Shown: positions 10,446 to 60,628, counted from the stretch's first letter. The stretch is DNA of 61,709 bases from Elusimicrobiota bacterium (GCA_016204975.1 JACQJP010000032.1:1-61709), one strand, 5' to 3'. Notes: a model not told the origin generated them from the letters alone. Made by a program: numbers and translations.

Positions 10446-11302
10446 TGCCCGCCTGCCTGCTTGGGATTCTAGCACCCTCCGCAGCGCTTCGGGTACCAGC
10501 CGGGCTCGCAGAGCTCGCCAGCGTCCTAGCACTGTCGCTTTTCTTTTTTAGTTGCGGTTCGCAGGAGTTGGCGGAGAATGTTCCCCCGCCGGTCCGCATC
10601 CTCATCGATCCGGGACATGGGGGATATGATCCCGGCGCGATGCGCAAGATTGAAGGCCAGTGGGTTCGGGAGAAGCAGGTAGCCTTGAGCATCTCTTTGA
10701 ATCTGGCAGAGCGTTTCCAGAAAGATTCCCGTTTTCTGGTTTCCCTCACCCGCTATGGAGACAGCCACCTCTCTCTTTACAGACGCTCCTCGATGGCGCA
10801 CCGGGAAAGGCCGGATCTTTTCGTCTCCGTCCACTTAAACGCCGCCGGCAGCCGCCACAAGCAGGGGATAGAGATCTTCGTGCATTCCGATTATCCTATG
10901 AACTCCCGGGGGCGCCGGGTCCGCCGCTATTCCCCTTGCGATGAGGATCGGACCAAGAAGGTGCTGCCCCTGTCGCCTGCTGAGATGCGCCGCCAGTGGA
11001 ACCGGGAGGCCTCCTTGGCGGGGCATCAGATTCAGAAGGCTTTGCGGGAGGAGACGGGGATGCGGAATATCTGGCTCAAGAAGCGGGATTTCTTCGTATT
11101 GCGCTGTGTGCCGGCTCCGGCGGTTCTGATGGAGTTGGGTTTTTTGTCCAACCCCAAAGACGCGGAGAGAATTGTAGAGGGCCGTTTTCGGGAGCAGTTG
11201 GTGAATGGAATCTATCGGGGGATTCTTGCTTATTTGGAGCAAAGATCCTCGCAGTCGCGGGAGGCTTCCGTCTCCGGAGCCCAGGGACCAGAACCGGGGT
11301 AA
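10445..11302 (+). CDS. N-acetylmuramoyl-L-alanine amidase (Amidase_3), lipoprotein
   Basis: ATG 10445 overlaps the queE stop (ATGA-type). Lipobox-like FFFSC. ILIDPGHGGYDPGA..DLFVSVHLNA..ELGFLSN. The signal peptide carries a Family-2 repeat. Confidence 0.85.
   Translation: MPACLLGILAPSAALRVPAGLAELASVLALSLFFFSCGSQELAENVPPPVRILIDPGHGGYDPGAMRKIEGQWVREKQVALSISLNLAERFQKDSRFLVSLTRYGDSHLSLYRRSSMAHRERPDLFVSVHLNAAGSRHKQGIEIFVHSDYPMNSRGRRVRRYSPCDEDRTKKVLPLSPAEMRRQWNREASLAGHQIQKALREETGMRNIWLKKRDFFVLRCVPAPAVLMELGFLSNPKDAERIVEGRFREQLVNGIYRGILAYLEQRSSQSREASVSGAQGPEPG
10469..10532 (-). repeat. Family-2 57-nt mini-element, copy a (inside amidase signal-peptide coding region)
   Basis: ctagcaccctccgcagcgcttcgggtaccagccggg..ccagcgtcctagcac. 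ctagcac at 10469 and 10526 (57 nt apart). Confidence 0.85.
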
Positions 11303-11312
11303 GAAAAATTTT

Positions 11313-11341
11313 TTGACTCGGGGGGATTTTTTTAGTAGGCT
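11313..11341 (+). promoter_or_regulatory. Candidate promoter in the amidase-amidase spacer
   Basis: TTGACT (11313-18), 17-nt spacer, TAGGCT (11336-41). The predicted transcription start is near ATG 11349. Confidence 0.3.
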
Positions 11342-11470
11342 ATCCGCCATGGTCTTCTTCCGGAGATCTTCCTGCTTGATGGGGGATGCCTGTCAGTGCA
11401 TGGGCTTTGGCATGTGTTGCCCAACAGCCCTTCGCGGATAGGCGGGTTTTCCGGAAGTTTTGAAGTCTTT

Positions 11471-11499
11471 AAACCCACTGTCCGCGAGTGGGTTTTTTT
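11471..11499 (+). terminator. Rho-independent terminator-like hairpin
   Basis: AAACCCAC-tgtccgcga-GTGGGTTT followed by a T run (7 T in total). Ends 1 nt before ATG 11500. Confidence 0.6.
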
Positions 11500-12384
11500 A
11501 TGGTGATTTTTTCTTTCATTCTTCTTTTTGCAGCCACCTTGCAGAGCTCGGGGGCGGAGGAAGCGCCAGGGGTGCGTGCCGAGCTTTGGGCGTCAGTCGC
11601 TCAGGCCCAGGATTTTGGGCGCCTTTCCCCAGAAACCCTCTCCGGCTGGAGGGGAGCGGCTGTCCACCTGGAAGAGCGCCGGTTGCGGCGTCCGGTCCGC
11701 ATCGTCATTGACCCCGGGCACGGGGGATTTTTCCCGGGCGCCCAGGGAAAGAAGAGAGCGGGGCAGGAGCGCACCCTGGAGAAAGACGTCAATCTTCGGT
11801 ATGCGCTCACGCTGTATGCCCTTCTCAAGGAGGATGCTCGCTTCGCGCCCTATTTAACCCGCAGCGGGGATGAGACGGTGCTTTTAGTGGAGCGTGTGGA
11901 GTTTGCCGTTCAAAAACAGGCGGATATGTTTATTTCCCTGCATGCCAACGGGAGATATCCCGAAGCTCATCCTCAGGTCAACGGCGGGGTGGAGATTTAT
12001 GTCTTGTCTGCGCAGATGAAGAATTTGGAGTTGTGCGACAATGAGCGGGAGAAGCGGGCGCTCCGAAAAATCCTTCCGGATATTCCGGATCGGGGGATTC
12101 CCCTTCCCGGAGCCGAGTTGAGGCTGCTCAATGTCCAAGCGGTGGAAAGGCTTCAGGGGGTTTTTGCGGAAAGGCTTCGGCCCCTGGTGGGGGAGATTCG
12201 GGTCCTGCGCCGGGATCACTTCGTGCTGCGCTGCGCCCCGATGCCTTCGGTCTTGGTGGAGATGGGCTTTTTGACCAACCCGATGGAGGAGGGGCGGCTG
12301 CTGGAGGACCGCTTTCGAACCTCTTTTACCTACCTGCTCTATCGTTCCCTGGTCCGGTATTTCTTTGAGCCCTCATCCCCTTAG
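11500..12384 (+). CDS. N-acetylmuramoyl-L-alanine amidase (Amidase_3)
   Basis: Signal peptide MVIFSFILLFAATLQSSGA, then IVIDPGHGGFFPGA..MFISLHANG..EMGFLTN. The track start GTG 11488 lies inside a terminator stem, so ATG 11500 is preferred. Confidence 0.85.
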   Translation: MVIFSFILLFAATLQSSGAEEAPGVRAELWASVAQAQDFGRLSPETLSGWRGAAVHLEERRLRRPVRIVIDPGHGGFFPGAQGKKRAGQERTLEKDVNLRYALTLYALLKEDARFAPYLTRSGDETVLLVERVEFAVQKQADMFISLHANGRYPEAHPQVNGGVEIYVLSAQMKNLELCDNEREKRALRKILPDIPDRGIPLPGAELRLLNVQAVERLQGVFAERLRPLVGEIRVLRRDHFVLRCAPMPSVLVEMGFLTNPMEEGRLLEDRFRTSFTYLLYRSLVRYFFEPSSP

Positions 12385-14130
12385 AGGGGGCGGTCCGGGG
12401 CGTCCGAATCGGCGGGCCAACTCCGACCGGGAAAGGGTCAGGAGGCTGGGTCGGCCGTGGGGACACGAGAGGCTGTTTTGGCACCGGGCCAGGTCCTCCA
12501 GGAGTTGCAGCGCTTCTTTTTCGGCAAGCGGGTCGTGGGCTTTGACGGCTGCCCGGCAGGCCAGGCCGGCCAGGTATTCGCCCCGCTCCTCTGCCAGGGC
12601 CGGGAGGCTCCCCAGAGACTCACAGATCGCCTCTAGGAATTTTTCCAGCTCCATATCCTTGGAAAAAAAAACCGCCGGCACGCCTTCCGCGCTCCACGCT
12701 CGAGGTCCTCGGGGACGGAGCTCAAAACCCATTCGGGTGGCCCACTCCAGATGGTCCTGTAGTTTTTGAGCCTGGGAAGCACTCGTTTCCCATAAGACGG
12801 GAACGAGGAGCTTCTGGACCGGAATCTGTCCGCGGCGGGCTTGGGCGAGATACCTCTCAAAGAGTACGCGTTCCGCCGCCGCGTGCTGGTCCATCAGGCA
12901 GAGTCCGCCTTGGGATTCCCAGACCAGGTAGGTTTTCTCAATGGGTCCGAGGAACCGGAAGGGGGGGCGGTACCAGTCCGGGGAGGTTTCGGTCGCAGGA
13001 CCCAAAGGGAGGAGGGGGCCTTCTTGGACGCAAGCTCTCAGCGAAGGGGCTGCGGAGGGTACCGGATCCCAGCGTGTAGGTATCAAGGGAGCGGTCTTTC
13101 TTTCTTTTTCGAGCGTGGCGAGGACAGCCCTCAGGACGTAGTCATGGACGGCTCTTTCCTCTCTAAAGCGGACCTCCCTTTTGGCGGGGTGGACATTGAC
13201 GTCGAGTTGGAGGGGGTCTATCTCCAAAAAAAGCGCCCCCTGGGGGCGCAGATCCTGTCGGTGCAGGCGCCGGTAGGCTTCCAGCAGGGCGTGCTGCAAA
13301 AGACGCGAGAAGATGGGGCGCCGGTTCACAAACCAAAACAGATGCCCTCTTCGGGCTTGTCCCGAATGGATGGGTGCCAGCAAGCCGAAGAAGCGAAGGG
13401 GGTGACTCTGGGAAAGAAATGGGATCAGCGGCTCCAGGGCTCTGGTTCCCAGGAGCGCCTCCGCTCTTTTTCTAAAGGGGTCCATCGAAAAGGGGTCGCC
13501 CTTTTTCCCTTGCGGGGCCAGGCGGAGGATGGATCTTTGGTCGCCGTCAAAATCCAGGCGGAGCCAGGGATGGGCCAGGGCGGTTTCTTCCGCGATGCGC
13601 AGCAGATGGCTTTTTTCGGTCGCCTCGCTCTTGAGGAACTTGGCCCGAGCGGGAGTGTTGAAGAACAGGCCTTGGACCTCCACCGCCGTTCCCTTTTTGG
13701 GCGGGGCCTCCCTTTCGAAGAGGATTTTGGGTCCCTTCCGCGTGATCTGCCACCCGGTGGGGGCTTGGGCGACGCAGCTGGTGAGGGTGAAGTGGGAGAT
13801 GGAGGCGATGGCGGGAAGGGCTTCCCCGCGAAACCCGAAGGTTTGAAGCTGCTCTAAGTCACCGAGCGATCGAATTTTGCTGGTGGCGTGTCTCTGCAGG
13901 GCCAGGCGGCATTCCTCCGGGGGCATTCCGCATCCGTCGTCGCTGACCCGGATGCGCTTTTTTCCCGCTTCCTCAATGGAGATTTGGATGTGGGCGGCTC
14001 CCGCATCCAGGGAATTTTCCAGGAGCTCCTTTAGAACGGAGGCGGGCCTTTCCACCACCTCCCCGGCCGCTATCTGGGAGACTGTTTCTTCCGAAAGGGG
14101 ACGTATCCTGGTTACTGTGGATTGTTCCAT
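12373..14130 (-). CDS. mutL: DNA mismatch repair protein MutL
   Basis: GHKL ATPase N-terminus (IAAGEVVERPASVLKELLENSLDAG) and C-terminal dimerisation/endonuclease region. Start overlaps the mutS stop. Confidence 0.93.
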   Translation of the reverse strand: MEQSTVTRIRPLSEETVSQIAAGEVVERPASVLKELLENSLDAGAAHIQISIEEAGKKRIRVSDDGCGMPPEECRLALQRHATSKIRSLGDLEQLQTFGFRGEALPAIASISHFTLTSCVAQAPTGWQITRKGPKILFEREAPPKKGTAVEVQGLFFNTPARAKFLKSEATEKSHLLRIAEETALAHPWLRLDFDGDQRSILRLAPQGKKGDPFSMDPFRKRAEALLGTRALEPLIPFLSQSHPLRFFGLLAPIHSGQARRGHLFWFVNRRPIFSRLLQHALLEAYRRLHRQDLRPQGALFLEIDPLQLDVNVHPAKREVRFREERAVHDYVLRAVLATLEKERKTAPLIPTRWDPVPSAAPSLRACVQEGPLLPLGPATETSPDWYRPPFRFLGPIEKTYLVWESQGGLCLMDQHAAAERVLFERYLAQARRGQIPVQKLLVPVLWETSASQAQKLQDHLEWATRMGFELRPRGPRAWSAEGVPAVFFSKDMELEKFLEAICESLGSLPALAEERGEYLAGLACRAAVKAHDPLAEKEALQLLEDLARCQNSLSCPHGRPSLLTLSRSELARRFGRPGPPPLRG

Positions 14131-16640: not shown

Positions 16641-16665
16641 CCTGCATTATATCCGACCGACGCAA

Positions 16666-16736
16666 GGGGGTCCATAGGCCTTTTGGTCCCTTTTTCCGGG
16701 CCTTTGGACCTAGGCAAAAGGTGGGACTTTTTTTCG
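16666..16736 (+). repeat. Family-3 intergenic GGACC/GGTCC-rich terminator-like repeat, copy 1 (between ychF and mutS)
   Basis: gggggtccataggccttttggtccctttttccgggcctttggacctaggcaaaaggtgggacttttttt aligns with the 43311 copy (reverse complement). Confidence 0.7.
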
Positions 16737-16760
16737 TTCCAAAGCGGGGCTTCGGGGGGA

Positions 16761-17834: not shown

Positions 17835-17915
17835 GGGGAGGTCCAGAGGATTTCATTTTAGTAAAATCCAGCTCGTGTGTCTCATGCACGGGTACGGCTC
17901 TGTGTCCGCAGTTCA

Positions 17916-17935: not shown

Positions 17936-17997
17936 CTGGCGGAGTCGTCCCGCCTCTGGCGGGCCGCCGTACCCGGAGCACTGCGGAGGGTGCTAGG
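17936..17997 (+). repeat. Family-2 mini-element, copy b (5' UTR of TPR gene, ends at the start codon)
   Basis: ctggcggagtcgtCCCGCCtctGGCGGGccgccgtacccggagcactgcggagggtgctagg, followed directly by ATG. Confidence 0.85.
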
Positions 17998-18558
17998 ATG
18001 TCATTGATTCGTTTGGGCGCAGTTGCCGGAACGGCTTTTTTACTGGCTACCTCTTGGGCTGCGCAGGGCGCCAGCACGCTGGACCCCTCTGGGGTCCCGG
18101 CGGGTACCCGGAGCTCTGCGCAGGGTGCGCGCCAAGAGGCGCTCAAGCTTCTGGAACCCTATCGGGAAAACCGGGTGATCTCCAACCTGCTGGATTGGTC
18201 CGCCCGGAAAGAGGAAAACCGACCAGCGGCGCCGCAGGAACGGGAGCTTTTGGAGGCGGTCCAAATTTTGGAGAGGCTGTCTATTGAGAACCCAACCAAC
18301 GATTGGTTCTCCGGCCTGTTGACGGTGCTCTACCAACGGCAGGGGAGGGCGGCGGATGCGGAGAAGGCCTTCGAGCGTCTGCGCACCCTGCGCCCCCGGG
18401 ACCCTCACATCTACCAGATGCTGGCGTTGGTTTACGAAAAGCAAGGCAAGAAGGAGGATGCCCTCCAGGCCTGGCGGAAGCTGCTCGAGCTCGAAGCTCC
18501 GGAGCCTTTGAGACGGCTGGCCCAGAAGCATATTGCCCATTTGCAAAATGTTCCCTAA
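17998..18558 (+). CDS. Secreted TPR-repeat protein
   Basis: Signal peptide MSLIRLGAVAGTAFLLATSWAAQGA and C-terminal TPR-like helices. A GGAGGG SD lies 7 nt upstream. A Family-2 repeat sits just after the signal peptide. Confidence 0.7.
   Translation: MSLIRLGAVAGTAFLLATSWAAQGASTLDPSGVPAGTRSSAQGARQEALKLLEPYRENRVISNLLDWSARKEENRPAAPQERELLEAVQILERLSIENPTNDWFSGLLTVLYQRQGRAADAEKAFERLRTLRPRDPHIYQMLALVYEKQGKKEDALQAWRKLLELEAPEPLRRLAQKHIAHLQNVP
18059..18133 (+). repeat. Family-2 mini-element, copy c (inside TPR CDS just after the signal peptide)
   Basis: ctgcgcaggg at 18059 and 18116 (57 nt apart). Stem GGACCCC tct GGGGTCC. Confidence 0.88.
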
Positions 18559-23688: not shown

Positions 23689-25800
23689 CTATGGTTCCGT
23701 GGGGTCCGGGGGGTAGGTCAGATCCGCTTCTTGGGATGGCCGCTCTTCGGGGACCTCTTCAGGAGGAGGGGGTTGGGAGGTAGGGGGTTCGGCAATCTCC
23801 GGAATATTTTTCGGGATTCCAGGCAGGATAAATTCCGCCTCCTTCGCCGGTGCCGGAGGGGGCGCCTGCGGAGTTTTTTTCCGAGCGACCCTTTGGGCTC
23901 TTTCCTTTTTCGGGGCAGCGGGGTAGGCGCCGGCCAACAGCTCGTTGGCCTTTTTATTGAGGCCTTTCACCGATTTTTTATTCATGTCCACCTCAAAGAG
24001 ATAGATGAACTCCTGGGCGGAGCGTTGGTTTTTAGAAACCCCAAGCCGGTACTGCACCGCAAAGGTTTGGGCCTCAATGAGCACCACGGACCAGTCCGAT
24101 TGGAAATCTTTGGAGTTTTCTGGGACATGCAGGGATTGAATCAGGGCGACCAGGCGTCTTTTGTCGTTGGGGAGTTGGTAGTTTTGCAGGAAGGAAATGA
24201 CCGCGTCGCGGCTGGGAGGTTCTGTGCCTTCCGCCGGCTCCATCTCCGGGATGGGCAGGGTGGATCGTGAGGCCTGGATCTGCAAGGTTCCGGACGTGCC
24301 GGCACCCTCCGCAGGGCTTTGGGTGCCCTCTGGCCCCGGTGCGACACCGGGGGGCGCGCCGGATTCTCCGATCGCCTTGGCGATGGAAAGGGAGTCGGGT
24401 TCGGGTTTGGGCAACTCTTTCTGGATGCGGGCCAAGTTCCGGCTGTCCTGGTACAGGGTGATGACCGCCAGGGCGGTCAACACCAGCAGGACCCCGCCAA
24501 ATCCTACGATCAGAACCTTGGAGGTTTTGCGGGAGGGTTTCTTTTGAGGTTCCAGGGCTTCAAAGGGCTCCTCGGGAAGCTCCGCAGGACCCTTTTCTTG
24601 AGACCTCTCTGCCGTCATCTCCTCCCGGGTTTCTGGAGGGGGTTCGCCGGCTTCTGGTTCCGGATAGAGCTGGGGTTCGACCATAGTGTCTTCTGGCGGA
24701 GCAGCCCCGCCTATGGCGGGCCGCCGTACCCGGAGCTCGTCAGGCCCCACTGGGGCTTCAAACGTTCCTGAGCGCTGTGAAGGGGCTGCGGAAGGTGCTG
24801 GCGGTTGGGAGCGAAGGTCCTCCGGGGTTCCCATGGGCGGTGTGGGTTCTGCGGAGGCGGGAGTCGCAGCTTCCGAAGGTGAGGCGCCGAAGAAAGCGTT
24901 GGGATCCTCCAGGGGGGAACCCATAAAGAGGCTCTCCGTACTTGCGGGAGCTGGTTGGGGAAAAGCGCTGGAAGTTTCCTGGAGAGGCGCGGAAGGTTTC
25001 AGTTTTTTTAATTCTTCGCCGGCCTGGACGACGGCCTCTTGGGCCTCCTGCAGATCCCTGTTTTTTTGATCAATCTCCCCGATTTTTTTATGCAGGTCCT
25101 CTCGGGTCGAATCCAGCTTGTTTTGCAGTTCCTGGAGCCTGTTTTGCAGAAATCCCTTTTCCTCTTGGAGGACCTTGAGCAGGCCTTCCGTCTGCCCCAG
25201 TTTATATTTTGAGACCTCATCTTCCTTGGCGGTTTCTTTCAGGCGCATCTCCAGCTCGCGGATGCGGTCTTTGCTTCTATTCAGGACGGAGGCCACCTCC
25301 ACCTCTTGTTTTTGGAGTTTTTGCTGGCTTTGCTGGAGTTGGGACTCCAACTGGCCGATGCGCGTCCAGGACTGCTCCAGTGTCTGTTCCTTTTTGAGCA
25401 GATCGGTTTTGAGGGAGTCTAAATGTTGGAGGGCCGATTGAGCTTTCTGAAGTTCTTCATTGACTTTTTCCAGGTGGAGGCGCAGGGTGCTGTTTTCCTT
25501 CTCCAGGGTCTCCAAATCTTTGATCTCCCTGGAACCCGTCGGGGTTGGAAAATCCGCTAGAGCCGGCAGGTGGCTCAAGGAGACGGAGGCCGGGTTGAGC
25601 CGTTGGCTCTTAAAGACAGACTCCAGCTCCGGCAGGGTTTCTGCCCGCACCCAGTCCCCCTCGCTTTCCCCGGTGGCTCCCTCGGGACACAGGAGCAGGT
25701 CCTGGTGGAAGCCCGCCACCTTGGCGAGCTCTTCTGGAGGGTGCGGTCCTACGACCTGCCCTTGGAGGTAGGCCCAGTATTTCATCGAAACGCGCTCCAA
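23689..25800 (-). CDS. GYF_2-domain / long coiled-coil / Pro-rich / single-TM protein
   Basis: N-terminus YWAYLQGQVVGPHPPEELAKV..WVRAETLPEL (GYF-like). About 200 aa of heptad-rich coiled coil. Pro/Ala-rich linker, one TM helix (VLIVGFGGVLLVLTALAVITL) and a C-terminal globular domain. Contains two Family-2 repeats. Confidence 0.7.
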   Translation of the reverse strand: MERVSMKYWAYLQGQVVGPHPPEELAKVAGFHQDLLLCPEGATGESEGDWVRAETLPELESVFKSQRLNPASVSLSHLPALADFPTPTGSREIKDLETLEKENSTLRLHLEKVNEELQKAQSALQHLDSLKTDLLKKEQTLEQSWTRIGQLESQLQQSQQKLQKQEVEVASVLNRSKDRIRELEMRLKETAKEDEVSKYKLGQTEGLLKVLQEEKGFLQNRLQELQNKLDSTREDLHKKIGEIDQKNRDLQEAQEAVVQAGEELKKLKPSAPLQETSSAFPQPAPASTESLFMGSPLEDPNAFFGASPSEAATPASAEPTPPMGTPEDLRSQPPAPSAAPSQRSGTFEAPVGPDELRVRRPAIGGAAPPEDTMVEPQLYPEPEAGEPPPETREEMTAERSQEKGPAELPEEPFEALEPQKKPSRKTSKVLIVGFGGVLLVLTALAVITLYQDSRNLARIQKELPKPEPDSLSIAKAIGESGAPPGVAPGPEGTQSPAEGAGTSGTLQIQASRSTLPIPEMEPAEGTEPPSRDAVISFLQNYQLPNDKRRLVALIQSLHVPENSKDFQSDWSVVLIEAQTFAVQYRLGVSKNQRSAQEFIYLFEVDMNKKSVKGLNKKANELLAGAYPAAPKKERAQRVARKKTPQAPPPAPAKEAEFILPGIPKNIPEIAEPPTSQPPPPEEVPEERPSQEADLTYPPDPTEP
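24296..24362 (-). repeat. Family-2 mini-element, copy d (inside GYF coiled-coil CDS)
   Basis: gtgccggcaccctccgcagggctttgggtgccctctggcccc... The flanking repeat spacing here appears to be 60 rather than 57 nt. Confidence 0.7.
24693..24745 (+). repeat. Family-2 mini-element, copy e (partial, inside GYF coiled-coil CDS)
   Basis: ctggcggagcagcCCCGCCtatGGCGGGccgccgtacccggagc is nearly identical to copy b over about 45 nt. The 3' part has diverged. Confidence 0.7.
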
Positions 25801-29530: not shown

Positions 29531-29593
29531 GGCCTGTGGGACCCGACTACGGTCGGGGAGTGCCGGCTCAACACGCCTTTGGGGCCCGGCCTG
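29531..29593 (-). repeat. Family-1 mini-element, copy C (intergenic, 21 nt upstream of receiver gene 29123..29509, sense to it)
   Basis: The reverse complement matches the consensus. GGCCTG repeats at 29531 and 29588 are 57 nt apart. Confidence 0.92.
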
Positions 29594-31590: not shown

Positions 31591-32253
31591 TTATGGGCCT
31601 CCTGGTGCTGTGTCTATGGAATTTTGAGATTGCCGCTGCATCTGCTTGGTTTTTTGCAATTCCCTCCGGGCGCTCTCTTCTTGGCCCAGCCGGAGGTAGG
31701 TCTCGTAGAGATACTCATGGGTGAGAGCGTTTTGAGGAGCTATCTCCGCGGATTTTTCCAGAAGTCTTCTGGATTTTTTCACATCCCCTCCCAAGAGCCT
31801 GGGGAGCTTAAAATAAAGCCTTCCCAGCACTCGGTAAGCTCCCCCCTCGGAGTAAGCGGGATCCAGCTCCAGGACTTTCTGCATCTCCTCTTCCAGAATG
31901 CGGACATACCGGAATCGGCTCAGAAAAGAGCTCGCCTCAGCCAGCCGCCCGCTGGCCAGTCCCCGCCAGTAGTGTGCCGCGGCGCTTTCGGGATTTTCCC
32001 GGACCCACCGGGTCGCCAGCTCAAAGGCCGGGTGATATTGCTTCTGACGGTAGTGCTCCTGAACTCGTGCCGGCACGCTGGGGGCCTCTGGCCCCCCGGC
32101 CGGTACTTGTAGCACTGCGGAAAGTGCCGGCACGCCTGGCGCCTCGGCGGGGTCCCTGGCTAAGAAAGAGGGGCTCTGCTGTGCAACAGAATGGGAAGAG
32201 AAAATGAATAGCCAGATGAGCGAGGCAAATATCCCGGAGCCTTTCGAGTTCAA
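31591..32253 (-). CDS. Secreted TPR-like (TatT-like) protein
   Basis: Signal peptide. Helical-repeat C-terminus (..GGAYRVLGRLYFKLPRLLGGDVKKSRRLLEKS..). Stop is adjacent to the phosphatase start. A Family-2 repeat follows the signal peptide. Confidence 0.6.
   Translation of the reverse strand: MNSKGSGIFASLIWLFIFSSHSVAQQSPSFLARDPAEAPGVPALSAVLQVPAGGPEAPSVPARVQEHYRQKQYHPAFELATRWVRENPESAAAHYWRGLASGRLAEASSFLSRFRYVRILEEEMQKVLELDPAYSEGGAYRVLGRLYFKLPRLLGGDVKKSRRLLEKSAEIAPQNALTHEYLYETYLRLGQEESARRELQKTKQMQRQSQNSIDTAPGGP
32067..32141 (+). repeat. Family-2 mini-element, copy h (inside TatT-like CDS, which is on the minus strand)
   Basis: gtgccggcacgc at 32067 and 32124 (57 nt apart). Stem GGGGGCC tct GGCCCCC. 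Confidence 0.88.
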
Positions 32254-46270: not shown

Positions 46271-49200
46271 ATGCTGTGGGGCAGACAGATGCTCAGCGTC
46301 CAGTACGGCCCCTTTCACCCCATCTTGGAGGAAGCCCTTGTGGAGAAGCTGCAGAGCCTCAAGGCGGCAGATCCTTTTTGCCGGGTGGTGGTCGTGGCGC
46401 CTTCCCGAAGGCTCTGTGACCGGCTCCAGAGGCTTTTGGCCGTAGAGAAGGGGCTGGCCGTTTTCAACGTCCATTTCCATACCTTCTACAGCCTCGCTTT
46501 CCAGATTATCCGGGAGGGGGACCCTCGTCCGGTTACCTTGCTCTCGGACCGCCTGTTCCATGACTTTTTGGTGGATCACTTGTTGGAGGAAGATTTCCGG
46601 CCTCCGGGGTCCCACAGGCCGGGCCCCAAAGGCGTGTGGAGCCGGCACTCCCCGACCGTAGTCGGGTCCCGCAGGCCGAAGGGCTTTTTGCCCGCTTTGC
46701 GCGCCAGCCTCAAGGACTTGGTAGATTCCGGAGTGGAGCCGGAGAGGGTCCGGGAGCTTTTGGCCGAGACCGAGGAGTCCGGCAGGCCTCTGGTTCGGCT
46801 GGACCCGGAGGAGGCGAGGCGGCTTTTGGAGCTTCTGGATCTGCAGGAGCGCTACCAAAAGCATTTGGAGGAGCTGGGCGTGACTGTTCCCAGCGGCATG
46901 ATCCGGCTGGCGACGGAGCTGGCGCCGGGCTCTGCGTACCTGAAAGAATTTCAGGAGATTCTCTATTACGGTTTTTATGATCTGACCGGCATCCAGACCG
47001 ATTTTTTTGAGGCGGTCTCCAGACACCATCCGGCGACCTTGTTTTTTCCCTACCGCCATGGACACCCGGCCTTCGCTTTTGCCCGGAGGTTTTTCGAGGA
47101 GAAGCTTCATGCTGCGGGCCGAGTCCCCATCGCCCTGCAACCAGATGAGGGACGGCCTCCCGCGCCGGCACCCTCCGCAGGGCTGCGAGTACCGGCCGGG
47201 AGGCCAAAGGCCTCCAGCGTGCCGGTTCGGGTGTGGAATGCGGCGGGTCCCCGGGAGGAGTCCTGGACGGTGGCCAAGGAAATCTTAAAACTGGTTCGAG
47301 GAGGCTGCGCCTTTCACCAAATCGGTATTGTGGCGCGTACCCTGGAGCCCTACCGGATGGTTTTGCGCCAGGTCTTGGAGGAAAACCGGATACCGGCCTG
47401 CTTTTCCTCCGGAAGGCCTCTGCTGAGCCATCCGCTGCCCCGTTTTTGTTTCTCCCTGCTTTCTTTTAAGCAGAGGGCCTTTCCGGCCATCCTTTTTGAG
47501 GACCTGCTTTCCTCCCCTTATCTTTGCACACAGAGTTGGGGAGATCCGGAAAGACAGAAGCTCCTCCGGCGTGGCTTCAAGAGGCTGGCACAGAGGCTTC
47601 GGATTCAGCGCGGGTGGCTTCAATGGGAAGGCAAGGTGAGGAGCTTTCTGGAAGGCGGACTCTCTTTAGAAGGGGAGGAGCCGGAGCGGGAGGGCCGCCT
47701 GCTTTGGGAGTGGATCCGGGAGGTCCGCCGGAATCTGATCTGGGCTTTGCAGGAGCCAGCCCCTTGGAAGGTCCGAATTCAGCGTGCTCAACAGGTTTTG
47801 GAAAGGTACTTCCGGCTTCCTGCAGATGCGACCGATTTGGAGAAGCGTCTTTGGGACGGGACCTGTGCGACGCTTCAGGAGCTGGAGCCATTGGAGCTTC
47901 TGGGCATCGGTGCGGAGGAAGAGGTTTTTTTGGAAGCCTGGGAGGATAAGCTAAAGGCCGCAGAGTTTCAGGAGTTTCCAGGGGAGAATTTGGGAGTTCG
48001 GGTTTTGGATGCCATGTCCGCTCGGGGGGAGAGCTTTGCCTATCTTTTTTTGATTGGACTTCAGGAGGGGCTTTTCCCGCGCAAGGTGCGGGAGGACCCC
48101 TTGCTGCGCGATTCGGTGCGCCGGGTGCTGAGCTCCCCTGGAGGGTACGGGATTCGCCCCAAGCTGGAGGGATATGAGGAGGAGCGGCTCTTGTTTCATC
48201 TGCTGACTTCTTCAGCCCGGAAGGGGCTCTTCTGCATCTATTCCCGTTCTGACGAGGAAGGGAGGGCAAAGATTGCCTCCGTCTACCTGCAGGAACTGGC
48301 GCGCACCAGAGACATCTGTTTGGAGGATTCCAAGAAAAATAGAAGCATCTTGAAGCAGCCCCTGGCTAAGATTCGAGGAGAGCCTTGGGAGGTCTTGAGT
48401 CCCAAGGAGGTTTCCTTGCGGCTGGCCTTTTCCGGGCAATCCCCGGGCGGTTTTTTGGAAAGCCTGGGGAAGGAGGCGGAGCTCTTTCGCGGCCCGGCTG
48501 AGGCCTTGGAGGCCATGAATACCTACGGAAATCCCGGCGAATTTGATGGCCGGATCGGTCCCCCCCGACCGTTTCTAAAGGCGCTTCGCCGCTCCGGGCT
48601 CTCTCCCAGCGCCCTGGCCAGTTTGGCGCGTTGCCCCTTTCAGTTTTTTGCCTCCCGGGTGTTGAAGTTGGGGGAGGTGGAGGAGCCCCAGGAGCCGGGG
48701 ACCCTGTCTTCAAAGGATACCGGAAAAATCTACCATCGGGTTCTGGAACTTTTTTATCGGAAGCTTTTGGAGCAGGGATACTGGAAGGGGAAACGCTCCG
48801 GGTTTCCCCGGCAGGTTTTTGAAGAGTGCGAACAGCAGGTATTTCGTCAATACCACTGGAAGAGTCTGGGATTGTATCCCGTTTTGTGGGAGGTTTTGCG
48901 CGAACGGATGCTTGCGCATTTGAGAGAATTTCTCCTTGGGGACATTCAGAGGGTTCGGGAGAGTGGGCATCTTCCTGTATATTTTGAGCAGGAGTTTTCG
49001 GCGTCTTCTTCCCAAACCCTCTTGGGAAAGGGCCGGGAGCTTCTTTTGCACGGTTTTCCGGACCGGGTGGACTTAGATGAGGTCCGGAGGCGTTTTTGGG
49101 TCTTTGATTACAAGACGAGGGGTAAGAAGGGAAATCTCTTGGCGGAGGTTTTACGGGGCAACCAGCTCCAGCCTTTACTTTACCTGGAAATTCTTCTGGC

Positions 49201-49555: not shown

Positions 49556-52500
49556 GCACCCGTCGCAGCCCCCGGGTTTTGACGGACGAGGAGAGCCGTT
49601 GGGCGGCCCGCACGCACTTGGATGGGAACGCCGTGGTGGAGGCCGGCGCGGGGACGGGCAAGACGACGCTGCTGGTGGATCGTCTCATCTTTCTTCTGCT
49701 GGGCCGGCGCTGTCAGATTTCCCGGGCGGTGGCCCTGACCTTCACCGAGAAGGCCGCCGGAGAACTGAAGCGCAGGCTCGCGCAGACCTTGGAGGCGATA
49801 GTCCGTTGGGCGGGGCAGACCAATGGGGTATGCGATCCTCATCTGCTGCAGATCGTGCAGAGACTGCAATCGCAGTGGCGGCGCTCCAAACAGGAGATTG
49901 AGGTGTCGGCCCAGAGGGCGTTGCTAGAGATGGATCGGGCCTCCATCGGAACCCTCCATAGTTTCGCCGCAGATTTGCTGCGCCTGTACCCCTTGGAGTC
50001 GGGGATCTCCCCGGAGTTTCAGGTGGATGAGGGAAGGTCCTTTGAGGAGTTTTTCAGGTCGCAGTGGAGTCTTTGGCTGGACCGCGAGTTGGGGGAGGAG
50101 GCCCCGCGTAAGGGGTTGTGGAAAAAGCTTTTGCCGGAGGTGGGTCTGGAGGATTTGGCCTGCTTGGCCAGAGATTTGTGTCAGCTCAGAAGCTTGGAGG
50201 GGGTTGCCTCGTTGGAAAAAATTCGAGAAGCATTTGAGGTGGTGGGACCTTTTGTGGAAAGGTTTCGGCGAGAGCTTCTCCATAAGGACTGGCTCTCTTT
50301 CGATGGGCTCCTGGTCCGGGCCCGGGAGCTTTTGGTCGGCCATCGGACGGTGCGGGAGGATTTGAAGCGGACTTTTGAGGCCATTCTGATAGATGAGTTT
50401 CAGGACACCGATCCCCTCCAGGGAGAGATTCTGTTTTTCCTGTGCGAGAAAAGAGGGCAATCGGCGCGCTGTTGGGAGGAGGTGAATCTGGAGCCCGGAA
50501 AACTTTTTGTGGTGGGAGACCCCAAGCAGTCCATCTACCATTTTCGGGGGGCCGACATCGTCGCCTACCGCCGGTTCACCAGGCAGATGATTCGGCAAGG
50601 CTCGGAGCTTTTGCACCTGCAGGTCAATTTCAGAAGTCCGGCCGGCATTTTGGATCCGGTGCATGAGATATTTTCCAAAATCATGGACGGCCGCTCCCCC
50701 TATCAGGCGGATTATATCCCCATCTATCCCCATAAGAACTCCGAGCCTGTGGGACCCGACTACGGTCGGGGAGTGCCGGCTCCACACGCCTTTGGGACCC
50801 GGCCTGTGGAAGGTTCTGGGGTGGAGTGGGTTCAGGTGAGCTCCTCAAACCAGGCGGCGCCGGTCTCTGCGGAGGCGACCCGTCAGGCAGAGGCGGCCTG
50901 GATTGCGGAGTGGATTTCCTCCCACTGCTCCAAAAAAATTCTCTTCCGGGATGTGGCCATCCTTTTTAGAACCTCCACGCCTCACCCGCCTTATCTGGAG
51001 GCCTTGAGAGGCGCCGGCATCCCCTATGTAGTGACGGGGGAAAAGTATTTTTATTCGGCTCAGGAGGTGGTGGATTTTCAGAATCTTTTGTGTGCCTTGG
51101 AGGATCCCTATGATCCTGTCTCCCTGGTGGGTCTTTTGCGCTCGCCTTTGGTGGGCTTGACCGACTTGCAACTTTATGAACTCAGCCAAAAGGGCGCTTT
51201 ATGCTATCTTTCCGATCCGCCGAAAAACCTCTCTTGCAGCGCGCGCACAGCGGCTTTCTACCGCATGCTTCGGAGCTTCCACGCCCTCGTGGGCAGGATG
51301 CCCCTGAGCGAGTTGGTCCATCGCCTCTTAAATGATACCCATCTTGTGGAGCTTTGTTCCCTGGCCTACCATCGGGAGCAGACCGCCTCTAACCTCACCA
51401 AGCTTTTGCGCCTGGCTTCTGAGGCCGGGGAGTTTGCCGGCCGAACCCTTCGGGAGTTTGCCGGGGCTTTAGAGGAGGCGGTGGCCGGGCTGGAGGAGGA
51501 GGGGGAAAGCCCTCTGGCGGATGAGAACTTCAATGCGGTCCGAGTTTTAACGGTCCATAAAGCCAAGGGGTTGGAGTTTCCCGTCATTTTCCTTCCCAAT
51601 CTTTCGGCTGCGGTTTCCGGCTCCCGGCAGAGCCCATCCTGCCTTTGGGAGGAGGCCTCCCGGAGGGTGGGTTTTCGGTTGAGGCAGGCGGGGGTGGCCA
51701 CTCCTCAGATGCTCCTTTTAGAACAGGAAAAGAAGCTACGGGAGAAGGAAGAGGAGGTCCGGATTTTGTATGTGGCCATGACCCGCGCCCGGCACAAGCT
51801 CTTTCTCTTATCCAATGAGCATAAGGCCCCCCAGGGCTCTTTGAGCGGCCTGATCCAGAAGGCGGGGACTTTTCGGGCGGCTCGCGTCCATCGGATTTCC
51901 GTGCAGGAGCTAGGCAAGCCGAAGAGTGGAAGACAAGCAAAGGAAAAAACCGATTCTTCACAGGCCGGACCCCAAAGGCGTGTTGAGCCGGCACTCCCCG
52001 ACCGTAGTCGGGTCCCACAGGCTGGGTGGAGGCGTCTGGCTTTGGATTGGAAAGCGCGAGAGAAGAGATGGGCGGCGGTACAGGAGGCCCCGTGCTTTCT
52101 AAGTCCTACGGCGCTTTCCGAAAAGTCTCTCCGGGTCCCACAGGCCGGGCGGACTGGAACGGGATCCGGGCTTTTGGTGGGCCAGCTGTGCCATGCGGTG
52201 CTGGAGGGGTGGGATTTTGGATCCTCCCCTGCAAAACTCAAGGACCCGATCTTGCTAAAGGAGAAAATTCACAAGGCTCTGACGCAGATAGAGCGGGGGC
52301 GTTTTGGAGAGCCGGGGCTGGAGAAGGCTCTTGGAGAGGAGGCGGAGGAGATTCTGCACCGCTTTTTTGAATCCGAGGTTTACCGGCGGATCGCAGGCTC
52401 TCGTATTTTGGGGCGCGAGGTGCCCTTTCTATATCCCTATGGAAACCAGGTGGTCCGGGGCAGTATGGATCTGCTTTATGAGTGGCGGGGCCGCTACAGG

Positions 52501-52728
52501 GTGGCTGATTATAAGACGGACCGCGTGCCGGACCCCAAAGGCGTGTTGAGCCGGCACTCCCCGACCGTAGTCGGGTCCCACAGGCCGGCATTCGAGATGC
52601 GCGCTTGGGCGGGGGAGTACCGGCAGCAGCGCCGGATGTATCTGGAGGCGGTCCGGAGGGGGACCGGGTGGAAGGATTGGAAGTTTGAGGTCATTTTTTT
52701 AAGGTTGGGCAAGAGCGTGATTTTATAG
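49552..52728 (+). CDS. addA: AddA / UvrD-family helicase-nuclease subunit A
   Basis: GTG start overlapping the addB stop. Walker A AGAGTGKTT, DEFQDT, VGDPKQSIY, ..TVHKAKGLEFP.., and C-terminal RecB nuclease ..GSMDLLYE..VADYKTD... Three Family-1 repeats plus one solo repeat end, all in frame. Confidence 0.9.
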   Translation: MSTRRSPRVLTDEESRWAARTHLDGNAVVEAGAGTGKTTLLVDRLIFLLLGRRCQISRAVALTFTEKAAGELKRRLAQTLEAIVRWAGQTNGVCDPHLLQIVQRLQSQWRRSKQEIEVSAQRALLEMDRASIGTLHSFAADLLRLYPLESGISPEFQVDEGRSFEEFFRSQWSLWLDRELGEEAPRKGLWKKLLPEVGLEDLACLARDLCQLRSLEGVASLEKIREAFEVVGPFVERFRRELLHKDWLSFDGLLVRARELLVGHRTVREDLKRTFEAILIDEFQDTDPLQGEILFFLCEKRGQSARCWEEVNLEPGKLFVVGDPKQSIYHFRGADIVAYRRFTRQMIRQGSELLHLQVNFRSPAGILDPVHEIFSKIMDGRSPYQADYIPIYPHKNSEPVGPDYGRGVPAPHAFGTRPVEGSGVEWVQVSSSNQAAPVSAEATRQAEAAWIAEWISSHCSKKILFRDVAILFRTSTPHPPYLEALRGAGIPYVVTGEKYFYSAQEVVDFQNLLCALEDPYDPVSLVGLLRSPLVGLTDLQLYELSQKGALCYLSDPPKNLSCSARTAAFYRMLRSFHALVGRMPLSELVHRLLNDTHLVELCSLAYHREQTASNLTKLLRLASEAGEFAGRTLREFAGALEEAVAGLEEEGESPLADENFNAVRVLTVHKAKGLEFPVIFLPNLSAAVSGSRQSPSCLWEEASRRVGFRLRQAGVATPQMLLLEQEKKLREKEEEVRILYVAMTRARHKLFLLSNEHKAPQGSLSGLIQKAGTFRAARVHRISVQELGKPKSGRQAKEKTDSSQAGPQRRVEPALPDRSRVPQAGWRRLALDWKAREKRWAAVQEAPCFLSPTALSEKSLRVPQAGRTGTGSGLLVGQLCHAVLEGWDFGSSPAKLKDPILLKEKIHKALTQIERGRFGEPGLEKALGEEAEEILHRFFESEVYRRIAGSRILGREVPFLYPYGNQVVRGSMDLLYEWRGRYRVADYKTDRVPDPKGVLSRHSPTVVGSHRPAFEMRAWAGEYRQQRRMYLEAVRRGTGWKDWKFEVIFLRLGKSVIL
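50746..50809 (-). repeat. Family-1 mini-element, copy E (antisense inside addA)
   Basis: cctgtgg at 50746 and 50803 (57 nt apart). Translated as VGPDYGRGVPAPHAFGTRPV. Confidence 0.92.
51959..52025 (+). repeat. Family-1 mini-element, copy F (sense inside addA)
   Basis: cacagg at 51959 and 52016 (57 nt apart). Translated as GPQRRVEPALPDRSRVPQAG. Confidence 0.92.
52133..52149 (+). repeat. Solo Family-1 terminal segment inside addA
   Basis: gggtcccacaggccggg alone, with no core. Translated as RVPQAG, in frame. Confidence 0.6.
52527..52588 (+). repeat. Family-1 mini-element, copy G (sense inside the addA nuclease domain)
   Basis: gccgg at 52527 and 52584 (57 nt apart). Translated as DPKGVLSRHSPTVVGSHRP, immediately after the DYKTD nuclease motif. 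Confidence 0.92.
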
Positions 52729-52758
52729 AGCCGCGCTAATTTCATAGAATAGTTTTAC

Positions 52759-52818
52759 CAGTCCGGGCCCCAAAGGCGAGTTGATCCGGCACTCCCCGAC
52801 CGTAGTCGGGTCCCACAG
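52759..52818 (+). repeat. Family-1 mini-element, copy H (intergenic, 12 nt upstream of receiver gene 52831..53217, sense to it)
   Basis: cagtccgggccccaaaggcgagttgatccggcactccccgaccgtagtcgggtcccacag. The most diverged copy, but the hairpin is intact. Confidence 0.88.
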
Positions 52819-52830
52819 ACAGAGGCGCCA

Positions 52831-53608: not shown

Positions 53609-53704
53609 GGGGCGGTTGTCTTGGAAAGCTATTTTACCATACCCCGCAGCCTCTTTCGCCCGTGCATTTTATTTTTTATATAATGTTTCCAGCCGGAGAA
53701 ATAT

Positions 53705-57263: not shown

Positions 57264-57271
57264 GAAAAACC

Positions 57272-58453: not shown

Positions 58454-58480
58454 CCCCCCTTTCCTTCAAAGCACTTGACT

Positions 58481-59902
58481 ATGGCGAGACAGACGCAGAC
58501 TTTGATCATCGGGGCCGGTCCCGGCGGCTACGTCGCGGCCTTAAAGCTGGGTCAGCTGGGGCGCAAGGCGCTTCTGGTGGATAGGGATGCCTTGGGAGGC
58601 GAATGTTTGAATTACGGTTGCATCCCTTCCAAGGCCTTGATCTCGGCGGCCCGTTTGGTTCACAGGGCTAAAAACTCCAAAGAGGCTGGCATTGAGCTGG
58701 AGGGACTTCGCGTCAATCTGGAGAAGCTTCAAGCATGGAAGGAGGGTCTCATCCGAAGCCTCCAGGGCGGCATCCAGACACTTTGCCGGGGAAACCAGGT
58801 GGAGGTTTTGAAGGGAACCGCTCGGTTTCTTTCCCCGAAGGAGGCGGAGGTAGCTTCCGACGGGCAGGGTCCGGAGAAGGTTGCTTTCGAGAATGCCGTC
58901 GTAGCCACCGGTTCCTCTCCTATGGAGCTGCCGAAATTTAAGCTGGATGGCAGTCGGGTCTTGAGCTCCAAGGAGGCCTTGGAGCTTCGACGGCTTCCGC
59001 AGAGGCTCACGGTGATCGGAGGGGGGGTCATTGGATTGGAGATCGGAACGCTTTATGCCCAGCTGGGCAGCCAGGTCACCGTGGTGGAGTACATGGACCA
59101 GCTTCTTGCGGGCATCTCCCCGGATTTGGTTCAGGTGGTGGTCAAGTCTTTGAAAAAAATGGGGGTGGAAGTTTACACCGGGTCTAAGGCCTTGGAATAC
59201 CGGCAAAAGGAGGGAGCGCTGGAAGTCGTCATCCAGACGCCTCAGGGATCGGTTCAAGTCGTCGCCGATCGAATCCTCTTGAGTGTGGGACGAAGGCCCC
59301 ATACGGAGAACTTGGGTCTGGAGGCCCTTGGAGTCCGGTTGGATGAGCAGGGTTTTATCCGGGCGGGAGAGAATTTTGAGACCACGGTTTCTGGAATTTA
59401 TGCCATTGGGGATGTGGCCGGCCCACCCTTCTTGGCCCATAAGGCCTCCCGGGAGGGAGTTCTCTTGGCGGAGTTTTTGTGCGGGAAAGTCCGCTCCCCT
59501 GCCTGGAATGGAATCAAAGGTTTGGTGCCCTGGGCCATTTTTACCGACCCGGAGATCGCTGCGGTGGGATTGAGTGAGAAGGAGGCGAAGGCCGGCGGGC
59601 GGGAGGTTTTGGCGGGAAGGTTCCCTTTCGCCGCCAGCGGTCGGGCCTTGACCTCTCGGGAGCCGGAAGGGTTTGTGAAGGTGATTGCGGATAAGGAGAG
59701 CCAGAAGATTTTGGGGGCGGAGATGGTCGGGCCGGAGGCCTCCGATCTGATCAGCGAGGCGTGTCTGGCGATTCGGCTGGGAGCCACCTTATCCGACGTC
59801 GCCTCCACCATCCACCCCCATCCGACCCTCCCGGAAGCTTTCCATGAGGCTGCCGAGGCGGCCCTAGGTCAGGCCATTCATCTCTTGGCCAAAAAGGCAT
59901 AA
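58481..59902 (+). CDS. lpdA: Dihydrolipoyl dehydrogenase E3
   Basis: GAGPGGY, redox-active GGECLNYGCIPSK and C-terminal ..HPHPTLPE... The track starts at TTG 58475; ATG 58481 is preferred. Confidence 0.93.
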   Translation: MARQTQTLIIGAGPGGYVAALKLGQLGRKALLVDRDALGGECLNYGCIPSKALISAARLVHRAKNSKEAGIELEGLRVNLEKLQAWKEGLIRSLQGGIQTLCRGNQVEVLKGTARFLSPKEAEVASDGQGPEKVAFENAVVATGSSPMELPKFKLDGSRVLSSKEALELRRLPQRLTVIGGGVIGLEIGTLYAQLGSQVTVVEYMDQLLAGISPDLVQVVVKSLKKMGVEVYTGSKALEYRQKEGALEVVIQTPQGSVQVVADRILLSVGRRPHTENLGLEALGVRLDEQGFIRAGENFETTVSGIYAIGDVAGPPFLAHKASREGVLLAEFLCGKVRSPAWNGIKGLVPWAIFTDPEIAAVGLSEKEAKAGGREVLAGRFPFAASGRALTSREPEGFVKVIADKESQKILGAEMVGPEASDLISEACLAIRLGATLSDVASTIHPHPTLPEAFHEAAEAALGQAIHLLAKKA

Positions 59903-59905
59903 CCA

Positions 59906-60565
59906 GTGCTGCTTACCTGTGTTTCCTCAGCGACCTCTGCCGGCTCATTGAAGGGATCAGCCTTTCGAGTTGTCGACTTGGGTTTGCGGGATTACCGGAA
60001 GGTCTGGACCCTGCAAAAGGAACTGGTGCGCAGGAGATCTGCGGGGAAGATTCCGGATACCCTTCTTTTGGTTGAGCACTCCCCTGTCTATACGGTTGGG
60101 AGGGGTTTGCGCAAGGATTCCCAGGATATCCCTTCTTCCATTCCCGTCTATGAGGTGGAGCGTGGAGGGGGCGTCACCTATCATGGCCCCGGCCAGTTGG
60201 CGGGGTACCCCATTCTCCATCTGCAGGAAAAGAACCTTAAAATTTCGGATTATTTTCGGTTGCTGGAGGAGGTGATTCTGCAGACCTTGGCAGCTTTCGA
60301 TATCTCCGGCAATAGGATTCGGGGATTTCGCGGGGTGTGGGTGGAAAAAAAGAAAATCGCCTCCATCGGCATCGCCGTCTCCCAGGGGATCGCCTACCAC
60401 GGTTTTGCGTTGAACGTCAATCCTGACTTGGATTTTTTTGAAAAAATTTGTCCCTGCGGCCTCCAGCCTTCCTCCATGACCTCGATGGAAAAAATTCTAA
60501 ACGGCTCTCCTTCCATGGCGGCGGTCCGGCAGGAACTCTCCTCCACCTTCCGGTCTACTTTCTAG
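59906..60565 (+). CDS. lipB: Octanoyltransferase LipB
   Basis: ..LLLVEHSPVYTVGR..RGGGVTYHGPGQL..KIASIGI..HGFALNV.. motifs. Closes the lipoate/ODH cluster. Confidence 0.88.
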   Translation: MLLTCVSSATSAGSLKGSAFRVVDLGLRDYRKVWTLQKELVRRRSAGKIPDTLLLVEHSPVYTVGRGLRKDSQDIPSSIPVYEVERGGGVTYHGPGQLAGYPILHLQEKNLKISDYFRLLEEVILQTLAAFDISGNRIRGFRGVWVEKKKIASIGIAVSQGIAYHGFALNVNPDLDFFEKICPCGLQPSSMTSMEKILNGSPSMAAVRQELSSTFRSTF

Positions 60566-60628
60566 CACGCTGGCGCCCCCTGGGGGGCGCTTGGCGGGCG
60601 CCCGAAGCACTGCGAAGGGTGCTAAAGG
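60562..60628 (+). repeat. Family-2 mini-element, copy g (intergenic, starts at the lipB stop codon)
   Basis: ctagcacgctgGCGCCCCctgGGGGCGCttggcgggcgcccgaagcactgcgaagggtgcta. Confidence 0.8.

Follow-up and report, generated by a model that had tools for sequence, protein, structure and literature searches.

Several described systems of short bacterial repeats stand close to the element considered here. Rickettsia palindromic elements (RPE) are selfish palindromic repeats placed in frame in unrelated housekeeping genes, where they are translated and tolerated at protein surfaces and termini (PMC10969869). Repetitive extragenic palindromic (REP) sequences and REPINs are tiny G+C-rich hairpins, forming subfamilies that differ by complementary stem changes and containing frequent G·T pairs; compensatory changes are common in REPINs (PMC3116915), and some REPs are intragenic, notably in the DNA-repair genes uvr and recBCD (PMC3733652). 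It was shown for the enzyme TnpA(REP) that swapping stems for their complements has little effect while a single stem mismatch abolishes cleavage, that loop and lower-stem bases are read specifically, that cuts are made both 5' and 3' of the hairpin, and that the tetranucleotide 5' of the hairpin guides the choice of cleavage site (PMC8266576). We analysed a 61,709-nt contig of an Elusimicrobiota bacterium (GCA_016204975.1, JACQJP010000032.1:1-61709), referred to below as the window, which carries eight copies of a 57-nt element named Family-2. This element is repeated and restricted to one lineage, has a covarying structure with strand asymmetry, lies in frame within genes, forms tandem arrays and leaves a 57-nt difference between filled and empty sites. 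It combines the behaviour of RPE with that of REP/REPIN sequences and fails the defining tags of each group; the family itself is real and well supported.

Family-2 shares with RPE the in-frame, translated residence in unrelated housekeeping genes. However, RPE are about 100-150 bp long and occur in Rickettsia only, whereas Family-2 has 57 nt and occurs in Elusimicrobia only, and there is no sequence relationship between them; the modular 5' half, the tandem arrays and the defined 57-nt filled/empty site are features of Family-2. REP/REPIN sequences are recognized as short G+C-rich palindromes in many copies, and Family-2 conforms to this with eight copies in 61.7 kb. The parallel extends to the host genes, which include those of UvrB, AddA/AddB-like proteins and possibly MutL. 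On the other hand, Family-2 bears neither GTAG nor CGTC, is built of two different hairpins instead of one hairpin or an inverted doublet, is mostly genic, six of the eight window copies and the majority of those elsewhere being within long reading frames of known families, with head-to-tail arrays while REPs are mainly extragenic, and is accompanied by no RAYT detectable with phmmer in the window and about 0.45 Mb of sampled loci. The IS200/IS605 elements (IS608, ISDra2) resemble it in strand-specific folding, subterminal hairpins, the lack of long inverted repeats and, possibly, the complementarity of the tetranucleotide before the hairpin foot to the site of cutting or targeting (PMC8266576). 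They differ in their orientation bias with respect to GC skew, which Family-2 does not show (28:27), and in that Family-2 has two dissimilar hairpins, the same tetranucleotide on both sides and no TnpA or TnpB in the DNA sampled. Coxiella QMITE, intragenic ERIC and BOX elements are likewise non-autonomous and give in-frame fusions or expression signals (PMC10969869, PMC5896051, PMC2229807). These elements differ from Family-2 in their larger size, their clear terminal inverted repeats and a mostly intergenic location. In cyanobacteria, small dispersed repeats (mentioned in PMC3116915) are reportedly about 21-27 nt long, mobile and often nested (Elhai et al. 2008); they are tiny and nested like Family-2, while sequence, size and lineage differ. 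We found no account in the literature searched linking Elusimicrobia with such repeats, and the family appears to be undescribed so far.

The eight copies had been listed in a preliminary description of the window, and we name them by the starts given there (e.g. 18059, 32067), with refined spans below. All were present. The covariance-model scan suggested in that description was run with a model made from 25 copies, filters off, over both strands; it recovered these eight and added none, with E values from 8e-16 to 2e-4 for seven of them and 0.25 for copy 24693, which is interrupted, the rest of the window giving noise. The same eight, and no more, were recovered by nhmmer, and the 25-nt core GTACCCGGAGCACTGCGGAGGGTGC with up to 3 mismatches gave 4 window matches against 0.00 expected from shuffles. 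About 55 copies were collected altogether, nearly all from nine metagenome-assembled genomes (MAGs) and the window. A search with the degenerate core in 185,579 species genomes returned 38 loci, 37 of them in nine MAGs (eight Elusimicrobia and one unclassified), the remaining match, from Actinomycetota, being devoid of the first hairpin and looking like chance. A few further copies came from metagenome contigs, and the core had no match in viral contigs. The family is thus restricted to the Elusimicrobia lineage. In blastn, these loci share with the window the element alone, at 81-93% identity, and no orthologue of the window AddB exceeds 43% identity, which indicates that the second hairpin (HP2, see below) is far better conserved than the host genomes.

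The structure was derived from 25 gap-free aligned copies of the type-A module, and RNAalifold independently yielded the same fold, with 8 compensated pairs. Two hairpins make up the unit, of which the first is long and irregular, with a closing helix (P0) and an apical, variable stem (HP1), and the second is the near-invariant HP2. P0 is formed by the first 4-5 nt (CYRGC), paired with the 4-5 nt directly 5' of HP2 (columns 2-5 with 30-33); columns 7-8 pair with 28-29. In HP1, columns 11-17 pair with 21-27 around a TCT-like loop, and any sequence is allowed at the four central pairs provided that they pair. HP2 follows directly as GTACCC-GNA-GC-NCT-GC-GNA-GGGTGC, in which the stem, both GNA motifs and the NCT loop are nearly invariant. 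Column 58 (C) corresponds to column 1 of the next unit, and CYRG tetranucleotides are spaced by 57 nt. At least three 5' modules are joined to a common HP2: type A, CYRGCACGCTGG-stem-CCGGCYG; type B, CTGGCGG-N6-CCCGCC tct GGCGGG-CCGCC; and type C, CCGCCGCGCC acc GGCGC-NN-CCGG. Of the window copies, 10469, 18059, 32067, 47164 and 60562 belong to type A, 17936 and 24693 to type B, and 24296 is a variant. The common start 'agcacgctgg' ascribed to all copies in the preliminary description does not extend to 17936 and 24693, which carry the CTGGCGG...CCGCC module and share one identical stem. At its ends the unit carries an inverted repeat that is short and imperfect, CACSCT.../...AGGGTG. If columns 1-3 and 59-61 are taken as a terminal stem, pairing reaches only 69%, which is better explained by complementarity of both ends to columns 31-34. 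This anatomy rules out integron attC sites and CRISPR repeats; attC cores (R''/L''...L'/R', GTTRRRY), which bound gene cassettes, were absent from the consensus, and the copies lie inside housekeeping genes instead.

The claim that compensatory change reflects constraint on pairing is supported by the larger alignment, in which 25 copies of type A, drawn from the window, from eight MAGs and from three contigs of metagenomes, were compared with 500 shuffles. Paired cells amounted to 91.6%, against 82.9 +/- 0.8 in shuffles, with none of the 500 as high; nine pairs were changed on both sides, against 5.5 +/- 1.1 (0/500), and the covariation score was 0.292, against 0.127. When the 3' partners were slid as a control, pairing fell to 33-48%. 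For the extended HP1 helix 96.8% of cells were paired, a value equalled in none of 500 shuffles. The four central HP1 pairs accumulated 37 double changes and a single one-sided one, with G-C, C-G, A-U and U-A all present: pair 13-25 is GC in 13 copies, AU in 6 and CG in 6; pair 14-24 is CG in 11, GC in 7, AU in 4, GU in 1 and unpaired in 2; pair 15-23 is CG in 15, GC in 7, UA in 1 and unpaired in 2; pair 16-22 is CG in 20, UA in 3 and GC in 2. In P0, pair 3-32 is AU in 16 copies, GC in 8 and unpaired in 1. HP2 is paired in 100% of cells, and its variation consists mostly of one-sided G·U steps, together with a compensated CTT/AAG change in copy 32067. In the type-B module, pairing reaches 98.5% and 5 pairs are compensated, as in CCCGCC/GGCGGG versus CCGACC/GGTCGG in two JACQJN copies with common flanks. 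Two patterns had been named beforehand as contrary to selection on structure, namely independent variation of the stem positions and a few subfamilies arisen by duplication of already paired variants. The second is seen in part, as HP1 stems recur (12 types in 25 copies, some common to several genomes), which lowers the number of independent paired changes from 37 to approximately 11. These are still required, and still refute the first.

All 55 non-Watson-Crick pairs, distributed over seven pair positions, are G·T on the strand on which the element was originally read, and none is A·C. This points to the folding of one specific strand, and one specific single strand is under constraint. With RNA parameters, the forward strand was the stabler one in 25 of 25 copies (-26.6 vs -20.8 kcal/mol). 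Orientation with respect to host genes shows no bias, with about 22 sense and 18 antisense copies.

Signs of mobility come from the arrays and from the flanks. At three JACQPE loci, a type-A copy lies inside an array of a related 57-nt unit (L006, 6720-6900; L008, 930-1170; L024, 2050-2220), whose HP2 has the compensated form GTCCCC/GGGGGC. The neighbouring array unit serves as an empty site, and the alignment gap is exactly 57 nt. In L008 the filled copy is bordered 5' by CTGG and 3' by CTGA; its paralogous filled counterpart in L024 has CTGA at either border. Type B forms head-to-tail arrays with a period of 57-59 and partial units at the ends, and behind several copies of types A and C the first 8-9 nt of a further unit can be recognized. 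The HP2 of copy 24693 is interrupted at 24739-24782 by an unrelated insert of about 45-50 nt, itself containing a hairpin (GGCCCC act GGGGCT), and a different insert of about 50 nt occupies the same HP2 point in JBDRGJ L023 (~3430-3480) and L020 (~350-400), indicating that mini-elements nest at a preferred site. Flanking 4-nt direct repeats are identical in 8 of 25 type-A copies (CTAG, CCGG, CTGG, CTGA) and match at three of four positions in 9 more. The left and the right tetranucleotide can each pair with columns 31-34, the four nucleotides immediately 5' of the foot of HP2. For column 32, complementarity to column 3 is found in 24 of 25 copies and to column 60, in the 3' flank, in all 25, also where the flanks differ (e.g. 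CCAG...CTGG) and are not duplications.

The best explanation, to which we give a little better than an even chance, is that Family-2 is a non-autonomous mobile mini-element, restricted to Elusimicrobia and moved as a folded single strand in a REP/IS200-like manner by an HUH/Y1 enzyme. The strand would most likely be single-stranded DNA, and the enzyme a TnpA of the IS200/IS605 type or a RAYT. By sequence this enzyme would recognize HP2 as well as the foot and loop of HP1, and the rest as a helix only. Cleavage would take place beside a CYRG able to pair with the four nucleotides 5' of the HP2 foot, at the position of the 'guide' that selects cleavage sites in IS200/IS605 and REP systems, and reinsertion at another CYRG would add 57 nt, leave CYRG on both sides and build head-to-tail arrays. 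Within genes, copies would survive selection where a housekeeping protein has its signal-peptide region, a linker, a terminus or a surface loop. This mode of mobilization is favoured by the match of the frozen, the free-but-paired and the flank-covarying positions to the behaviour of TnpA(REP).

Several observations weigh against it. We saw neither an HUH enzyme nor any other transposase: a phmmer search with E. coli RayT and IS5 InsH against 3,580 open reading frame (ORF) fragments, drawn from the window and the ~0.45 Mb of loci, gave nothing below E = 0.06, and Pfam assigned 30 window ORFs to housekeeping families or to none, without a mobilizing enzyme. No GTAG or CGTC tag is present in the consensus of 25 copies; GTAG arises only if the free position 41 is T. 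Type B lacks complementarity between the guide position and the 3' flank, and the AddB copy brings no net length gain in comparison with distant orthologues (the best of them 43% identical). Folding calculated with DNA parameters is equal for both strands, so that RNA accounts for the strand asymmetry no less well than DNA does. The 28:27 distribution of orientations relative to local GC skew shows no bias, although skew on short contigs is a weak proxy. Single-copy folding z-scores against shuffles are modest, from -1.2 to -2.4 with one of +0.65; stability of individual copies being weakly significant, the case rests on covariation and not on energy.

The flanks could also be understood if Family-2 were a classical MITE, a miniature transposable element with inverted repeats, mobilized by a DDE transposase (IS5/IS701/PIF-like) with a 4-bp duplication at CYRG/CTAG-like targets, its hairpins being incidental or kept for another reason. 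IS5-group elements duplicate a 4-bp YTAR target. The direct repeats, the 57-nt gap with its CTGG/CTGA and CTGA/CTGA borders, the imperfect inverted repeat at the unit ends and the lack of orientation bias all agree with such a mechanism, and the pairing of column 32 is also compatible with a closing helix plus a 4-bp duplication. A parental insertion sequence would then bear ends matching CACGCTGG.../...GGGTG. Nevertheless, we regard this origin as unlikely. The terminal inverted repeats reach only some 3-6 bp (CAC...GTG, with about 5-6 of 8 positions matching), where at least 10 bp would be expected, and the left and right tetranucleotides often differ yet both pair with column 32. With a DDE enzyme it is not explained why HP2 is invariant, why G·T pairs without any A·C are strand-specific or why three internal helices covary across divergent genomes, and phmmer detected no IS5-like ORF in the sampled DNA.

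A lower probability, which we would call slight, is given to the possibility that the folded molecule is RNA, acting in transcripts through stability, processing or protein binding, or spreading via an RNA intermediate. In its favour are the exclusive G·U wobbles on one strand and the greater stability of the forward strand under RNA, not DNA, parameters; moreover, the GNA/GNA internal loop of HP2, with G and A invariant, is RNA-like, and both untranslated window copies are in sense orientation. However, hairpins of DNA likewise tolerate G·T pairs and tandem G·A pairs. Copies antisense to the host gene would be dead on arrival, and with ~22 sense and 18 antisense copies half of the family would never be made as the folding strand. 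Rfam gave no match at the gathering score over the window and, for two copies tried at E up to 10, only a chance match of 9.7 bits; a tRNA/tmRNA search found none. The sampled DNA showed no reverse transcriptase, though no search was aimed at one.

About as slim are the chances that the complementarity of HP1 was produced mechanically, by intra-strand template switching at quasi-palindromes, in which one arm is copied from the other. In favour of it count the 37 double changes against one one-sided change, including swaps from G-C to C-G without a wobble intermediate, and the mostly one-sided variation of HP2. On the other hand, template switching leaves unexplained the covariation between P0 partners some 29 nt from each other, the invariance of the neighbouring HP1 pairs and loop, and the restriction of wobbles to one strand; the HP1 stem is also unrelated to flanking DNA. 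Since it can act together with selection, the two are not exclusive. A separate candidate, that the HP1 stem is taken from the insertion site or related to it, was rejected, as the longest match between HP1 and the flanks was 5.44 nt, compared with 5.39 +/- 0.17 after permutation (p = 0.46).

It is conceivable, at a similarly small probability, that Family-2 is a satellite of neither REP/IS200 nor DDE elements, and represents a new mobile class, spreading SINE-like in the form of folded RNA or with the help of a kind of enzyme to which no role in transposition has yet been assigned. Its internal tetranucleotide might then programme the CYRG target, and the length of 19 codons might have evolved specifically for the colonization of coding sequence. 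If so, this would mean long remodelling of housekeeping proteins across a clade of Elusimicrobia.

As had been noted from the outset, six of the eight window copies lie in coding sequences and are translated in frame; one of the others is in a 5' untranslated region and one directly 3' of lipB. The sense frame reads ASTLxxxxAPAGTRSxAxGA, and antisense frames give APSAxLRVPAG... or (Q/R)HPxQS..GGPPEA. Of the remaining frames, some contain stop codons and others, seldom found, give peptides rich in Arg and Leu. Only stop-free frames are in use, as expected of an element acting at the DNA level and filtered by protein tolerance. A length of 57 nt, equal to 19 codons, and peptides rich in Ala, Pro, Gly, Ser and Thr in the used frames would make copies tolerable in genes. 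A conserved peptide module in place of a DNA element, suggested by the many translated copies and the recurring sense peptide, is effectively refuted, for the element occurs in both orientations, in at least three frames giving unrelated peptides, in untranslated regions and in unrelated host proteins, with its nucleotides conserved at every codon position.

Comparison of host proteins with their orthologues, proposed earlier in search of a 19-aa indel, gave mixed results. Beyond the window, hosts include GatA, UvrB, PyrF, PyrD, Dxs, PrfA and molybdopterin oxidoreductase, among others. In JACQWW UvrB, a 20-aa insert directly precedes the DESH box and is absent from all 119 orthologues listed. 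PyrD, compared with E. coli PyrD, has two aligned blocks separated at the element by about 37 residues instead of 6. The expected gain in length was not found in the window AddB, where the 21 element-encoded amino acids fill a linker of equal length in 59 orthologues, there RALGxALDxLFxPG; judging from this alignment, the element appears to have replaced native sequence instead of adding to it. The loop of UvrB between DYF and DFLxxIDESH contains unrelated inserts of 6-25 aa in other Elusimicrobia (P0187, P0127, P0134, P0162, P0174), and several unrelated inserts in one loop indicate an insertion hotspot.

By Family-2, 'selfish DNA inside protein-coding genes', best known from Rickettsia, is extended to a distant uncultivated phylum, with a much smaller unit whose boundaries, structure and target can be read directly from sequence. 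Its frozen, free-but-paired and flank-covarying positions form a test case from which predictions for the mobilizing enzyme can be made. There are also practical consequences: the elements break MAG assemblies, their 19-aa low-complexity inserts in UvrB, PyrD, GatA, Dxs and AddB can mislead annotation, alignment and structure prediction, and they can donate expression signals, in the window a Shine-Dalgarno site and a stop codon.

Among the window copies, 10469 (type A, 10468..10529, minus strand; covariance model 74.7 bits, E = 2.3e-14) lies antisense in the signal peptide of an Amidase_3 lipoprotein (10445-11302, plus strand) and is read as LAPSAALRVPAGLAELASVLAL; the amidase ATG at 10445 overlaps the preceding TGA. 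Two Amidase_3 paralogues adjoin here (10445-11302 and 11488-12384), the element being in the first alone. The HP1 stem of this copy, alone among the eight, is imperfect, as originally described, and the six hairpins quoted as perfect in the other copies were all found, at 17949, 18081, 24706, 32080, 47199 and 60573. Copy 17936 (type B, 17936..17997, plus; 35.9 bits, E = 4.9e-6; hairpin 17949-17963) is composed of CTGGCGG-AGTCGT-CCCGCC tct GGCGGG-CCGCC and HP2, and occupies the 5' untranslated region of a TPR gene. Its 3' end, GGAGGG (17985-17990), is 7 nt before the ATG at 17998 and is thus positioned as a Shine-Dalgarno site. The protein of the same gene (17998-18558) bears copy 18059 (type A, 18071..18132, plus; 80.9 bits, E = 1.1e-15; HP1 GGACCCC tct GGGGTCC at 18081-18097) in sense orientation just past its signal peptide, read as GASTLDPSGVPAGTRSSAQGAR.

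Two copies are situated in a 703-aa ORF (23689-25800, minus strand), which the preliminary description had labelled a GYF protein, a label not sustained by Pfam, which finds no family there. Copy 24296 (variant, 24298..24358, minus; 28.6 bits, E = 1.8e-4) is in sense orientation and read as GAPPGVAPGPEGTQSPAEGAG; its HP2 is GGCACCC.../GGGTGCC. The stem of this copy had been considered imperfect or lost, yet its HP1 (24334-24352) has a perfect 8-bp stem of its own, CCCCGGTG cga CACCGGGG in plus-strand reading. Copy 24693 (type B, 24689..24802, plus; 14 bits, E = 0.25 for 24732-24802; HP1 CCCGCC tat GGCGGG at 24706-24720) is antisense and keeps the frame despite the insert, which splits HP2 after GTACCCGGAGCTCG, the 3' half GGGCTGCGGAAGGTGC being at 24783-24798 and the end of the copy at about 24798-24802.

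Copy 32067 (type A, 32070..32131, plus; 81.5 bits, E = 8.3e-16; HP1 GGGGGCC tct GGCCCCC at 32080-32096) is antisense in a TatT-like/TPR gene (31591-32253, minus), past the signal peptide, and read as PALSAVLQVPAGGPEAPSVPA. Its HP2 stem carries the double compensated change, GTACTT/AAGTGC, and it is followed by CCGGCACGC, the beginning of a further unit. Copy 47164 (type A, 47164..47225, minus; 79.6 bits, E = 2.1e-15; HP1 at 47199-47215) is antisense in the AddB-like gene (46271-49555, plus) and encodes amino acids 299-319, PAPSAGLRVPAGRPKASSVPV. Copy 60562 (type A, 60562..60626, plus; 63.6 bits, E = 5.7e-12) has the HP1 GCGCCCC ctgg GGGGCGC with a 4-nt loop at 60573-60590; its first four bases, CTAG, provide the stop codon TAG of lipB (60563-65), and it stands between lipB and a terminator hairpin at 60655-60682. 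This 12-bp perfect hairpin with a T-run forms the terminator after lipB and the copy, and two tandem 45-nt units lie further downstream, at 60795-60884.

Sequences inside mutL (12373-14130, minus strand), at 13040-13085 and 13233-13249, may represent a decayed ninth copy. In the MutL linker, a piece resembling the 3' half of HP2 is joined to an inverted 5' end in a rearranged form. There is also a perfect hairpin, GCGCCCC ctg GGGGCGC, with the stem of the HP1 of copy 60562 and, on the minus strand, T7 after it.

A second repeat family, Family-1, is represented in the window by nine copies of about 62-72 nt with the hairpin CCCGAC-CGTA-GTCGGG, at 23428-23499, 28136-28207, 29532-29593 (minus), 46607-46678, 50745-50806 (minus), 51953-52024, 52516-52587, 52751-52822 and 61635-61706. 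Family-1 is absent from the other Family-2 loci, and its core had no match in viral contigs. The Family-1 copy in the AddB-like gene corresponds to a net insertion of about 15-20 aa relative to 24 orthologues, and three copies are located in the AddA-like ORF 49309-52728.

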